Notes: a model not told the origin generated them from the letters alone. A stretch of 64,000 nucleotides of DNA from Mobula hypostoma (GCF_963921235.1 NC_086097.1:10540001-10604000); one strand, 5' to 3'. Shown: positions 1 through 64,000, numbered from the stretch's first letter. A program made the numbers and translations.

Positions 1-245
1 GTAAACCCCGAGGAGCTGGAGTCTCTAAGGCAGTCCTGCATTGATTTCAAAGCTGACTGGTACCAAACTGTATTGGTCTCTGCCGTTCCTTTGGGTTCAT
101 CAAATGCCAGGAGAGGGGGACTTGCTACATATGCAACAGCTTGCTCTCCATAATGCACTGCCCAGGCTTGCATATCTAGAGAGCTGGGATGCAACATCCA
201 TTATGTCAACCCTAACCAACGGAGGCCTTACTCACTCACTCACTG
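1..245 (+). mobile_element. 3' half of non-coding RTE-type non-autonomous element (family A), ending in an (ACTC)n tail
   Basis: Its reverse complement aligns by eye with 45551-45820 and 59645-59890. It ends ggaggcctt-actcactcactcact. The 5' part lies outside the window. Confidence 0.75.
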
Positions 246-45550: not shown

Positions 45551-46120
45551 TGAGGCTCTACTTTGGTCAAAATTGACCATGGATGTGTTGTCCCAGCTGC
45601 CTACATGATATGCAAGCCAGGATGGTACATTACGGAGAGCAGGTTGTTGCCCATGCAGTTGGCTCCCCCTATCCACACAGCTGATGAATCCAAAGGAATG
45701 GTAGGGACTGACACAGTTTGGCACCAGTGGCATCACAGGAGCTCCCAGTCAGCGTTGAACTCAACATTGGATTGCTTTAGGGATTCCAGCTTCAGATTTT
45801 TTCTCAGAGTTTACTCCAAAAGTCTTCTCCATGACTACAGATGCAAGAAGGTGAAGGTTTGAGATTTTCCTCCTCTTAGCTGAGCTGCCAACCACAGCTG
45901 ATGAGCCCGTTTGTTCGAAGTGACTGGTTTTAAGGCACCAGTAACTTGCCTTTGCCCCTTCTCCTGTCAGTGGAAATGGTTCTGCTTGGTTCTGTAAAGA
46001 AAGCCAGGAGCTGGACTTGATTGTCAGAGACTATTTGAGGCACATACTACTGGGATCATTTAATAGTTCGTGGGAGCTTAACCTCTCCACCACACCTGGC
46101 TATAACAACCTTAAGGAACC
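45551..46120 (-). mobile_element. Family A non-coding RTE-type element, full length
   Basis: Starts GGTTCC on the minus strand. Contains the RTE-5'UTR-like ggcagctcagctaagaggaggaaaa. Homologous to 59640-60215 and 1-245. Confidence 0.78.
45961..46120 (-). ncRNA. Degenerate HDV-like ribozyme candidate at the 5' end of family A
   Basis: P1 GGTTCC/AGAACC, P2 CTCCTG/CAGGAG, P3 GCT/AGC and J4/2 CTGA. L3 is altered. Confidence 0.5.
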
Positions 46121-55559: not shown

Positions 55560-55820
55560 CATGAAATGCTGGAGGAGCTCAGCAGGCCAGGCAGCATCTA
55601 TGGGAAAGAGTAAACAGTCAACACTTTGGTCCAAGACCCTTCATTAGGACTGAAAAGGAAGAGTTCTCCTCTTTCTTTCCAGTGCTCATGAAGGGTCTTG
55701 GTTCAAAATATCAACTGTTTACTCTTTTCCATAGATGCTGCGTGACCTGCAGAGTTCCTCCAGCATTTTGTACACATCGCTTTGGATTTTCAGCATCAGC
55801 AGATTTTCTCGTGTTTGTGA
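55560..55820. repeat. Inverted pair of Penelope termini (~100-bp arms)
   Basis: aaatgctggaggagctc..gacccttcat / atgaagggtc..gagttcctccagcattt. Confidence 0.8.
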
Positions 55821-58060: not shown

Positions 58061-59639
58061 TGAACATTGGCTGAGTCAGAAATGGCCAGGTGCCAGATAA
58101 TGAATTTTTTAAAAATCTTGCATCGTTGATGTTGCTTTACCAGGAGTACGGAAGAAACTCTGGATGAGCAGATCAGAATTTCTAATGGCCTACCAGGCAA
58201 AATGCCAATGGAACAGCAGCAGATCTGAGGAAGTTCCAGGCAACAAACCTATTCTGGATATTTAGGATCAGATGCTCTTGTTTATTGAATCAGCATCAGA
58301 CACCTGCGCTGAATGTTTACCATTTGTGCTCAGATTTTAACATATTTTTGACAAAAGAGGGATTCAAAGCATTATTAAAGCCTAAACGTAGCTCATTTTG
58401 AGAAGAGATTGCCAAAATGCATAAATAAACATCTGCAGGTATTTGCCTAGAACACTGAGCATTAAGGTTTGTAAATATCTTTCAATCATCATTAAGCATT
58501 CAACATGTTCATAAGAATCGCAATCATCAGCCTTGCAGTGATTGTCCTGAAGAGATAAGAGATATGCAAAATACACAACACCTTTTTTTCTGCTTCTGGT
58601 ATTGGGGTTTGAACTGATCCCAGAATAAAGGACCAAATTGCTCTCTCTGCTGTTTCTACAGGATTCACTACATCTACCAAATAAAATTGACTGATTTTTG
58701 CATGTAATACTATCACCCCCTAAAAACTAATCAATAAGCTTTCAGACCTTGGCCTTAATATCTTCTTATGCAGTTCGATCCTCAATTTCCTCACTTGTCA
58801 GTCAGTTTGGATTGGCAACATAATCTTCTTCAGAAGTGCCATCACAAGGCTGCAAGCTTAGCCCCCTGCTCTACTCGCTTTATACTTACGACTTGTTAGC
58901 AAGGCATAGCTCCAACGCCGTATTTAAGTTTGCTGATGACAGCATTGCCATAGGTTGAACCTAAGGTGGTGTCAGATCAGCATATAACGAGATTGAAAAC
59001 CTGGCTGAGTCGTGCCACAACAACAACCTCTCACTCAATATCAGCAAGACCAAGGAGCTGACTATTGACTTCAGGGGAAGGAAGCCGGAGGTCCATGAGC
59101 CAGACATCATTGGAGGATCAGAGTTGGAGAGGGTCAGCAACTTTAAATTTCTCATATCAGAAGACCTCTCCTGGGTGCAACACATAAAGTGCAATTATGA
59201 AGAAAGCACAGCAGTGCCTCGACATCCTTAGTAGTTTGTGAAGATTCGGCTTGACATCTAAAACTTTGACAAAACTCCATAAATGTGTGGTGGAGAGAAT
59301 ATTGAGTGATTGTATCACTGCCTGGTATGGAAACATCAATGCCCTTGAATGGAAAATCCTACAAAACACAGTGGATACAATCATATTCATCACAGGTAAA
59401 GCACTCCCCACCATTGAACACATCCACACAGGGCATTTTGGCAGGAAAGCAGCATCCATCAACAGGGGCCCCCATCACCCTAATCATGCTCTCTTCTCAC
59501 ATCTGCCATGAAGAAGAAGGCACAGGAGCCTCAAGGTTCACACCAACTATTTGCAGTTTGTTATCTTTTGCACACTGGCTGTCCACCCTGTAGCTGCGGT
59601 ATTTCATTGATTCGATTATGGCTATTGGACTTACTGAGT

Positions 59640-60215
59640 CTGTCTGAGGCCTCTGTCGGTCAGAGATGACGATGGATATCGCGTCCTGGCTGTCTGGATA
59701 AGAAAGCCTGGACAGTACAATATGCCCACGTAGCAAGCTCCCCCTCTCTACACATCTGATAAACCCAAAGGAAAGGCAGAGACCGATACAGTCTGGCCCC
59801 AGCAGTGTCACAGCGATTGCCAGTCAACATTGAACTCAATGTAGGACAGTCTTAGGAGCTCCAGCTTCAGATTTTTCCCTCGAGGTTTACTTCTGAAGTC
59901 CTTCCCCGTGAGTGGGCAAAGCCACAAGGCAGAGGAGGTTTGAGATCAGAGTTTTCCTTTTCCTAGATAAACTGCCAAATACAGCTGATGAGTCCCATCT
60001 GCCCAAATCAACTGGTTTTAAGGTAACCCAAATTTGCTCCTTTGCCTGTCAGTAGAAATGGTTCTGCCGGGCTTAGTAGTTAAGCCACACGTGAAGGCCA
60101 GGAGCTGGACTTGGTTGTTAGAAGACTATTTGAGGCACATGCCACTGGGAGAATTTAATGGGTAATGGGAACTTGTTCCCAATATCACTTGCAACTCTAA
60201 CAATGTTAAGGAACC
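59640..60215 (-). mobile_element. Family A non-coding RTE-type element, full length, with ~11-bp TSD
   Basis: TSD acttactgagt (59629-59639) and acttattgaat (60216-60226). RTE-like ggcagtttatctaggaaaaggaaaactctgatctcaaacc. Confidence 0.82.
60043..60215 (-). ncRNA. HDV/CPEB3-like ribozyme candidate
   Basis: P1 GGTTCC/AGAACC, P2 CCTG/CAGG, P3 GCC/GGC, L3 TTCACGT plus an inserted hairpin, and J4/2 CTGA, all in canonical order. Confidence 0.6.
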
Positions 60216-60864
60216 ACTTATTGAATATGCCCGCAAGAAAACAATTCTCAGGGTTGTATGTGATGACATATATATACTTTAATAATAAATTTCATTTGAG
60301 CTTTGAACCTTGAATAGCTGGAACAGGAAAAGCACCGACCTTGAACATACTTTCTTTTTTCTCACCACTGCGGTCCTTTGTTACTGCCGGTACGCCGGGA
60401 GTAATTCTGCAGCTCATTAGTTACTTTTGAAAAGGAATGTAGGAACTCAAGCAGGTTATTTGTTCACAAGCTTACACAATGATAATTCCTCAGATATTCA
60501 CCCTTTGATCAGTTGTGCTAAATGACAATACCAGTGCATCAGCACATTGTACTTTCCACTGATGTTCCTTCCATTGTCTTACTCAATGTATTGTACTCTT
60601 TCTAAAGATATCATAAAATAAACAGTAAGTCAAACTAACCAAAAGAGTATTTTATTAAGTATAATAAAATACAGTATCAAGGCAAAATTGACTTGTTGCT
60701 TTGCAACAGGAACAGGTGCAGTCAATGGCAGTGTCCAGTCTCAGCGTAAAGCTTCATTCAGGAGGAGGCTGAATTCTGGTACACTCTGTCAGATTCAGCA
60801 CAGTTCTCATTCTCAAGTCTCCAGCGTGGAACTTGAACTGCAACCAGCCAACTTAAAGGAATGA

Positions 60865-63279: not shown

Positions 63280-63725
63280 ATAAGACCATAAGACATAGGA
63301 ACAGAATTAGGCCATTCAGTCCATTGAGTCTACTCCAGCATTCCATCATGGGTGATTTATTAACCTCTCAACCCCATTATCCTGCCTTCTGTCCATAACC
63401 TTTGATGCCCTTACTAATCAAGAACTTGTCAGCCTCCACTCTAATTATACCTAATGGCTTGGGTACTACAGCCATCTGATTCACTACCCTCTAGCTAAGA
63501 AATTCCTCCTCATCTCTGTTCTAAATGGATATTCCTCCATACTGAGGTTGCGCCTCTAATCCAAGACTCCCCTACTATAGGAAACATCCTCTCCACATTC
63601 ACTCTGTGTAGGCCTTTCGATATTCAATAGTTTTCAATAAAATTCTCCTTCATTCTTCTAAGCTCAAGCGAGTACAGGTCCAGAACCATCAAATGCTCCT
63701 CATACATTAAACCTTTCTGTCCCGG
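63280..63725 (-). mobile_element. CR1 3' fragment
   Basis: Antisense CR1 3' UTR and (ATAAGACC)n tail. Confidence 0.8.
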
Positions 63726-63727
63726 AA

Positions 63728-64000
63728 ACATATGAAGCATGTTTGATGGTTCAGGGCCTGTATTCATTGGAATTCAGAAGAATGAGGGGTGATCTAATTG
63801 AAACCTGTTGAATGGTGAAAAGCCTTGATAGAGAGGATGTGGAGAGGATGTTTCCTGTGGTAGGAGAGTCTAAGATTAGAGGACACAGCCTCAGAATAGA
63901 GGGTTGTTCTTTTAGAATGGAGACGAGGAGGAATTTCTTTAGCCAAAGAGTGGTGAATCTGTGGAATTCATTGCCACAGACACCTGTGGAGGCCAAGTCA
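63728..64000 (+). mobile_element. CR1 3' fragment that runs off the window
   Basis: YSLEFRRMRGDLIE..RNFFSQRVVNLWNSLPQ. Confidence 0.85.

Follow-up and report, generated by a model that had tools for sequence, protein, structure and literature searches.

The minus strand of a 64,000-nucleotide (nt) stretch of the Mobula hypostoma genome (GCF_963921235.1, NC_086097.1:10540001-10604000; the whole stretch is hereafter the window) carries at 59634..60215 a full-length, 582-nt, non-coding copy of a dispersed retroelement, here called family A. The first 173 nt of this copy (60043..60215), flagged in a reading made from the window's sequence alone (the sequence-only reading), are probably a mutated copy of a double-pseudoknot ribozyme of the hepatitis delta virus (HDV) type. 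A homologous module, in its consensus free of the defects of the window copy, heads a second family, B, a long interspersed element (LINE). We consider it rather probable that the module at the start of both heads, the first ~172 nt in family A, was ancestrally an active HDV-like ribozyme that defined the 5' ends of the elements. We are more confident of this ancestral activity in family B than in family A.

The anatomy of the window copy is described here along the minus strand, in terms of helices (P), loops (L) and joining segments (J). The 5' strand of P1, GGTTCC (60210..60215), sets the predicted cleavage site 5' of the G at 60215. J1/2 (60105..60209) is 105 nt long, compared with 104 nt in the consensus; in minimum free energy (MFE) folds it forms a self-contained domain with a closing stem, and it contains the internal hairpin GGGAA/CAAG/TTCCC (60180-60167). 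The 5' strands of P2, CTCCTG (60099..60104), and of P3, GCC (60096..60098), are followed by the L3 heptamer TTCACGT (60089..60095), which matches the published pattern TYYHCGY. The 3' strand of P3 is GGC (60066..60068), and that of P1 (60060..60065) reads AGAACC in this copy, where the consensus of family A has GGAACC and that of family B GGAACT. J1/4, which is AT in the window and GT ancestrally, and a 5-nt linker TTCTA at the place of P4 fill 60053..60059. J4/2 is CTGA (60049..60052), matching CNRA and with the candidate catalytic C at 60052, and the 3' strand of P2 is CAGGCA (60043..60048), in place of CAGGAG in the consensus. All of these motifs are present, in HDV order, where the sequence-only reading had put them; what it passed over in its account of P3 and L3 are 20 nt between TTCACGT and GGC. 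This stretch (60069..60088) is an insertion specific to family A and missing from LINE family B, and consists of GT, a 17-nt hairpin (60086-60070) and a C.

The element is flanked by a 5-nt target-site duplication, TAAGT (60216..60220 and 59629..59633), the 5' copy of which directly adjoins the first G of P1, as had been pointed out before. The same prior reading held that a second full copy begins at the same base, and it does: an older copy at 45551..46120, likewise on the minus strand and 77.9% identical to the consensus, opens from 46120 downwards with the identical GGTTCCTTAA. This copy has lost 12 nt in the L3 region. Between the window copy and the family-A consensus, identity is 83.8%, and the defects of this copy, a C·A mismatch in P1 and a P2 of 4 base pairs (bp), are private mutations relative to the family. 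Judged by sequence, it is a dead relic, and so would be all sampled copies, which now appear inactive.

A search of the home assembly (3.48 Gb) with the window element yielded 8,825 first-look candidates. Among the 40 of these that were scored, identity to the window copy was 78-81% except for the self-match, and most began no more than a few bases from the position of 60215. Family A has a length of ~590 nt and a copy number of several thousand or more. When 30 genomic copies are aligned together with their flanking DNA, they delimit a discrete unit, the DNA upstream of GGTTCCTTAAGG being unrelated among copies, and the boundaries given for the window copy derive from 30-60 genomic copies. 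The family consensus was taken from a column table of 63 copies, two from the window and the rest from genomic loci. It places P1 GGTTCC in columns 1-6, P2 CTCCTG in columns 111-116 (pairing with CAGGAG in 167-172), P3 GCC in 117-119, L3 TTCACGT in 120-126, the insert in 127-146, GGC in 147-149 and GGAACC in 150-155, followed by J1/4, TTCTA and then CTGA in 163-166. CTGA is kept in 51 of the 63 copies.

Three column pairs of this table are mixtures of CA, CG and TG. The counts are CA 31, CG 15 and TG 12 in columns 146-147 (window 60069-60068, minus strand), CA 27, CG 18 and TG 13 in columns 149-150 (60066-60065), and CA 30, TG 14 and CG 9 in columns 155-156 (60060-60059). Because CA cannot become TG in one step, CG is ancestral at all three. 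The sequence-only reading had guessed that the two A's following a C in the window copy are decayed CpG dinucleotides, and the mixtures in columns 149-150 and 155-156 agree with this. The CpG-corrected consensus differs from the uncorrected one by two bases, in columns 147 and 156. It has 15 helix pairs, all Watson-Crick (6 bp in P1, 6 bp in P2 and 3 bp in P3), together with the G of J1/4. Restoration of P1 to P3 in the family consensus had been anticipated, and indeed P1 has its full 6 bp, P3 its 3 bp and J1/4 its GT, while P2 grows from 4 to 6 bp. Family B has a G at both corrected positions (22/22 and 18/22 copies), which is independent support for the correction in family A.

Family B came from a genome pattern search for insert-free cores with GCCTTCAYRTN{0,6}GGYRGAACY, the reversed pattern serving as control. 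The pattern matched 20 times, compared with 2 for the control, and 11 of the 20 matches have the insert-free form GCC-TTCACGT-GGC-GGAAC(T/C). Two loci, L065 and L068, match family A with 75-77% identity along its head, nt ~1-410 (59806..60215 in the window copy), and then run into degenerate pieces of open reading frames (ORFs) with endonuclease- and reverse-transcriptase-type motifs. By these motifs, family B is an endonuclease/reverse-transcriptase (EN-RT) LINE with the module in its 5' untranslated region (UTR). With its first 1,200 nt as query, at least 16 long matches begin at nt 1-4, and the DNA upstream of GGTTCC is unrelated among 22 aligned copies. The plain majority consensus of the 22 reads P1 GGTTCC, J1/2 of 104 nt, P2 CTCCTG, P3 GCC, L3 TTCACGT, P3' GGC, P1' GGAACT (with a G1·U pair), J1/4 GT, TTACA, CTGA and P2' CAGGAG. 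A 5'-truncated copy of this LINE is located ~50 kb upstream of the window on the same contig (G000:C1:10488007-10489786).

Both consensuses were compared with the RNArobo 'loose P4' HDV descriptor published in PMC4870747 (as drawn in supplement Fig. S11/S13). It requires P1 of the form GNNNNN:NNNNNY, J1/2 of at most 50 nt, P2 of 6 bp, P3 of three Watson-Crick pairs, L3 of exactly 7 nt (TYYHCGY), J1/4 RN, 4-54 nt for P4, and J4/2 CNRA. The CpG-corrected family-A consensus agrees with every element except for two lengths, a J1/2 of 104 nt and the 20 nt that follow the L3 heptamer, and the plain consensus of family B departs from it in the length of J1/2 only (also 104 nt). P1 has G at +1 and a closing pyrimidine in both families (GGTTCC:GGAACC in A, GGTTCC:GGAACT in B), and the 6-bp P2, CTCCTG:CAGGAG, crosses P1 to give a pseudoknot. 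P3, GCC:GGC, adjoins P1'; it is plain majority in B, where G127 is found in 22/22 copies, and CpG-corrected in A. The L3 of family B is exactly the 7-nt heptamer, while that of family A is TTCACGT plus 20 nt. J1/4, the P4 linker and J4/2 are GT, TTCTA and CTGA in A, and GT, TTACA and CTGA in B, with no P4 helix in either. The long J1/2 goes beyond what the descriptor searches for, but not beyond what the fold allows, since R2 ribozymes are reported in PMC3774820 with P1 to P1' spacings from 23 to >700 nt.

For the chance controls, the descriptor was relaxed for family A to allow a J1/2 as long as 150 nt and an L3 with at most 25 extra nt, and for family B to allow the longer J1/2 only. In the family-A consensus the relaxed descriptor matches once, at nt 1. 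For either family, 200,000 anchored dinucleotide shuffles produced no sequence that passed it, and there were no matches in 290,684 bp of real DNA searched on both strands or in decoys with the catalytic C replaced by A, G or T. The helices alone are weak evidence and are not significant when unanchored. When required to be all Watson-Crick and to start from nt 1 of the consensus of the family, they occur in 35/100,000 dinucleotide shuffles; if G·U pairs are permitted and the sequence is left unconstrained, 1,382/20,000 anchored shuffles fit, and the window holds 60 unanchored all-Watson-Crick sets, 28 on one strand and 32 on the other. It is from these last figures that one could argue for a permissive pseudoknot template fitted by chance onto the start of a repeat. 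We find this explanation barely credible, considering that no shuffle survives once the published sequence constraints apply, that the consensus repaired the defects of the window copy as predicted, and that a second family has a canonical version of the module.

Of 43 core positions, 1 differs between the two consensuses, compared with 26 of 187 elsewhere (Fisher p = 0.034). This one difference concerns the final base of P1', which is C in A but T in B and can pair with G1 either way. The 26 other differences are distributed over J1/2 (11), the linker (2) and the downstream part (13). In addition, there is one clean 20-nt indel, positioned exactly between the L3 heptamer and P3'. The changes that keep a pair are all one-sided: G-C in P1 goes to G·U, and the closing stem of J1/2 shows this same change as well as U·G to C-G. 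Bases of J1/2 shared with family B occur in a part of the family-A copies, C at 17 in 9/63, G at 34 in 15/63 and T at 41 in 23/63, which fits an older A subfamily nearer to B. No subfamilies were seen within the ribozyme region of family A, which displays star-like decay only. On the strength of this homology, the source of the module is the 5' UTR of family B.

The 5' ends of family A are sharp. The start lies at nt 1-3 in 37 of the 63 copies, and the remaining 26 are 5'-truncated at nt 7-54. Among 42 near-full-length copies, 17 have a target-site duplication of at least 8 nt, which in 10 of these 17 either ends at G1 or extends over it by 1-3 nt. The ends are not heterogeneous, in accordance with the sequence-only reading. 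It should be mentioned that a transcription start at G1 would explain such ends equally well. On that alternative, a putative internal promoter in the LINE 5' UTR starts transcription at G1, and the HDV-like fold was either a relic by the time family A amplified or never cut. We judge this to be possible, though on the unlikely side. It has a precedent in the Pr77 segment of L1Tc, a 5' segment that is described as both promoter and ribozyme in PMC3383444 and PMC3185411. It leaves unexplained why both consensuses fit the descriptor exactly at nt 1, where none of the 200,000 shuffles did for either, and why the core has changed less than the rest between A and B.

Several further observations weigh against an ancestrally active ribozyme. 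P3 of family A is complete only after CpG correction, the simple-majority consensus having A at 147 and 156. None of the single copies passes the whole descriptor (0/63 in A and 0/22 in B), and all three helices are kept in 3/63 copies of A. At E <= 10, the Rfam models HDV_ribozyme, CPEB3 and drz gave no match to the window copy, to the near-consensus family-A copy L041 or to 20 copies of B, and a search of the whole window at the gathering threshold found no HDV-type match. Folding speaks in part for the ribozyme: in unconstrained MFE folding of the consensus head, nt 1-6 pair with P1' and J1/2 closes as its own domain, and the genomic copy L041 shows the same pairing in its MFE structure as well as in its centroid; P2, which crosses P1, is outside what these folding programs evaluate. 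The stability of the L041 fold, on the other hand, is ordinary (z = -1.13).

The pairing across copies likewise adds no independent proof. In 54 copies of A and 16 of B, 86.4% of the cells pair in the named structure, compared with 32-50% when the structure is slid along the alignment. Shuffled partners pair equally well (86.5%, with 349 of 500 shuffles at least as high), and the covariation score is 0.101 against 0.102. The pairing thus belongs to the consensus only and is what neutrally decaying copies of two sources are expected to give. The sequence-only reading had advised a descriptor or covariance search and a covariation test; the consensuses fit the descriptor with J1/2 and, in family A, L3 relaxed, no Rfam match was found, and covariation was at the level of shuffled partners.

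The three CpGs located in P3', P1' and J1/4 raise another difficulty. They show CA and TG in a ratio of 88:39, compared with 154:156 at seven other CpGs of the head, and they are unlinked, only 6 of 63 copies being CA at all three. The CA excess could come from source copies that already had the pair-breaking A's, from G-to-A editing of complementary DNA (cDNA), or from a context bias. The 20-nt insert is a difficulty of its own. Its presence in the family-A consensus means that it predates the amplification of the family. No precedent for a helix inserted in L3 was found in the HDV-like ribozyme literature examined, and the insertion may have inactivated the family-A ribozyme. The start-site alternative can claim the insert, the CA excess and the lack of covariation and of Rfam matches in its favor.

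Finally, in two LINE families related to B with intact 1,109-aa EN-RT ORFs, the 815-960 nt preceding the endonuclease domain contain nothing that matches the HDV-like motif, even with one mismatch tolerated in P1 and in P2; the true 5' ends of these families are not mapped, so this negative covers the 815-960 nt stretch only. The LINE families related to B at L090 (G000:C58:18197800-18202600) and L091-L094 are ~50% identical to B in the endonuclease, and one of them combines an intact 1,109-aa EN-RT ORF with a very short 3' UTR that contains a hairpin.

A dual system as in L1Tc has also been considered, in which the first ~170 nt would be an internal promoter and a working ribozyme at once, allowing self-expression as well as trimming from read-through transcripts. 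Pr77/L1TcRz is a known precedent for it, and the head found here on both a LINE and its non-autonomous derivative recalls Pr77, which L1Tc and NARTc have in common. We rate the dual system as quite improbable here; it is an extension of the ribozyme interpretation and not an alternative to it.

Family A as a whole is, from its sequence features, a non-coding, non-autonomous retroelement that lacks long terminal repeats (non-LTR) and resembles a short interspersed element (SINE). This assignment is based on the discrete unit, the duplications around it and its 3' end, together with the lack of a known RNA gene in the head. Target-site duplications, a LINE-type 3' end and 5'-truncated copies are all seen, and a long ORF is absent. 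The 3' end of the family consists of a stem-loop CTCTG/ACCGA/CAGAG, GCCTCAG and short tandem units such as ACTCAG and CCTCA. In the window copy, the tail (59634..59805) has the stem-loop at 59665-59651, followed by GCCTCAG ACAG ACTCAG at 59650-59634. The defining feature of a classical SINE, a head derived from tRNA, 5S or 7SL RNA, is absent. No tRNA gene, other RNA gene of the RNA polymerase III (Pol III) type or A and B boxes were found in the head (ARAGORN, 0 genes; Rfam, no match). This agrees with the sequence-only reading, which had described a SINE-like element with no Pol III promoter.

Family A looks like a chimera in which a head from the 5' UTR of LINE B is joined to a foreign LINE-type tail, because its last ~180 nt have no match in the 3' end of the one family-B copy compared, and resemble, at ~70% similarity, those of a CORE-type SINE with a tRNA head. 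This SINE occurs in the flanks of family-A copies at three loci (L032:2428-2738, L006:2425-2739 and L030:1094-1333); its A and B boxes are clear and its central block is CORE-like. The likeness to the family-A tail (~70%) extends over the last ~200 nt of the SINE, so that two unlike heads are found with one type of LINE tail. It is also noted that a short derivative ~4.3 kb upstream of the window start (L061:5607-5779) retains only nt 4-91 and 497-530 of family A, an internal deletion having removed the catalytic core.

We have compared the heads of A and B to known HDV-like ribozymes. The best-studied members that trim LINE 5' ends are those of the ribosomal DNA (rDNA)-specific R2, of insect RTE and of trypanosome L1Tc. 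Like the 5' ribozymes of R2, R4/Dong, RTE, L1Tc and Baggins, the modules of A and B have a double-pseudoknot core at the element's 5' end and a predicted cleavage site 5' of the first base. According to PMC3774820, R2 ribozymes have a P1 of 6-7 bp, a P2 of at least 5 bp, a P4 that in some cases is not long enough to fold and a J1/4 of 0-2 nt, and invariance is limited to the catalytic C and four further positions; the A and B heads fit all of this. The same study reports cleavage at element 5' ends in the R4, L1 and RTE clades, 5' junctions based on microhomology where cleavage falls at the element end, and convergence of active-site sequences in R2. The long J1/2, the P4 of a few nt, the 6-bp P1 and the microhomology at the 5' junction are likenesses of A and B to R2 as it is described there. 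Unlike the site-specific R2 of rDNA, A and B are dispersed and high-copy in a 3.5-Gb animal genome, A has a helix in L3, and both are known here from sequence only.

Non-autonomous carriers of ribozyme heads are on record, namely the R2 SIDEs (PMC3414825) and NARTc/SIDER of trypanosomatids (PMC3185411 and PMC4035085). Like these, family A is short and non-coding and keeps a LINE 5' ribozyme together with a 3' end of the kind a LINE reverse transcriptase recognizes; unlike them, it seems to be built in the manner of a SINE, with a head and a foreign tail, and not to be a simple internal deletion. With tRNA-derived SINEs it shares its shortness, non-coding nature, abundance, flanking duplications and LINE-type 3' tail. 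What sets it apart from them is its head, which derives from a LINE 5' UTR, bears a ribozyme fold and has no tRNA, 5S or 7SL part and no A or B boxes. The minimal HDV-like/theta ribozymes described in PMC10879173 resemble A and B in having a core with no real P4 and a catalytic C that is the first base of J4/2. They are ~50-60 nt long and occur in phages and metagenomes beside tRNAs, whereas A and B have a structured J1/2 of 104 nt and reside on retroelements.

The mammalian CPEB3 ribozyme has the same L3 heptamer as A and B. This sharing, already recognized in the sequence-only reading, is confirmed by the mouse Cpeb3 primer GTTCACGTCGC, which lies 18 nt from the cleavage site in the primer table of PMC10919898. 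In other respects the CPEB3 ribozyme is unlike A and B, being single-copy and intronic, with a P4 helix, a short J1/2 and another P3 sequence. A likeness is J1/4, which is GU in the CPEB3 ribozyme as it is ancestrally in A and B. The present module does not fall into the CPEB3 family, as the Rfam CPEB3 model has no match here and the locus is a multi-copy repeat. The likeness of the heptamers, taken as a sequence match, gives no evidence of kinship, because TTCACGT is one of 24 heptamers allowed by the L3 pattern and convergence has been documented for R2 in PMC3774820. In the literature searched, no HDV-like ribozyme was found reported for SINE-like or CR1/L2-type elements of vertebrates.

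We propose the following mechanism for the ribozyme interpretation. At the very 5' end the elements would lack their own promoter, or they would be independent of one, and they would be transcribed inside longer host or read-through transcripts. The ribozyme would cut 5' of G1 and remain on the downstream RNA. A LINE reverse transcriptase recognizing the 3' stem-loop and tail would then copy this RNA to its exact 5' end, and microhomology of the target with GG(T) could aid the joining of the 5' junction. A stronger version of this proposal, which we put forward tentatively and with some doubt, is that a LINE lineage and a promoter-less SINE-like chimera of thousands to tens of thousands of copies may both owe their 5' ends to an HDV-like ribozyme, and that the ribozyme of the chimera may have worked despite a 17-nt helix between the L3 heptamer and P3'.

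If this were true, the HDV fold would gain a new structural subclass, with a helix within L3, and ribozyme processing would represent a third route to a successful short retroelement, beside Pol III heads and hammerhead retrozymes. In the large genome of an animal, the same device would head a dispersed LINE and a SINE-like derivative of very high abundance, and could let ribozyme processing replace the Pol III promoter as the head of such an element. The pair of families would also offer a natural experiment on the fold, with matching cores that have or lack the L3 helix. An L3 of the CPEB3 type in a retroelement leaves room for cellular HDV-like ribozymes descending from such elements, a specific kinship being unsupported.

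The remaining observations concern the window and the search for partner LINEs. The 3' part of a third family-A copy lies at 1..228 on the plus strand, with its 5' part just upstream of the window; the upstream sequence at the window start had been considered as a LINE, and this was rejected when it was identified as that copy. A LINE at L062 (G000:C40:77475000-77484500), found via Pfam RVT_1, was rejected as a partner, being unrelated to family A. It has L1-like features, with an ORF1 of 339 aa and an ORF2 of 1,264 aa. The 150 RVT_1 matches in the genome apparently all belong to one young, abundant LINE family, with many open frames of 1,264 aa. Within the window, which is densely filled with further repeat families (D1-D20), other interspersed repeats form two pairs of near-adjacent inverted duplicates, one of 100 nt and 85% complementary (55564-55663 and 55669-55768), the other of 152 nt and 76% complementary (63553-63704 and 63731-63882).

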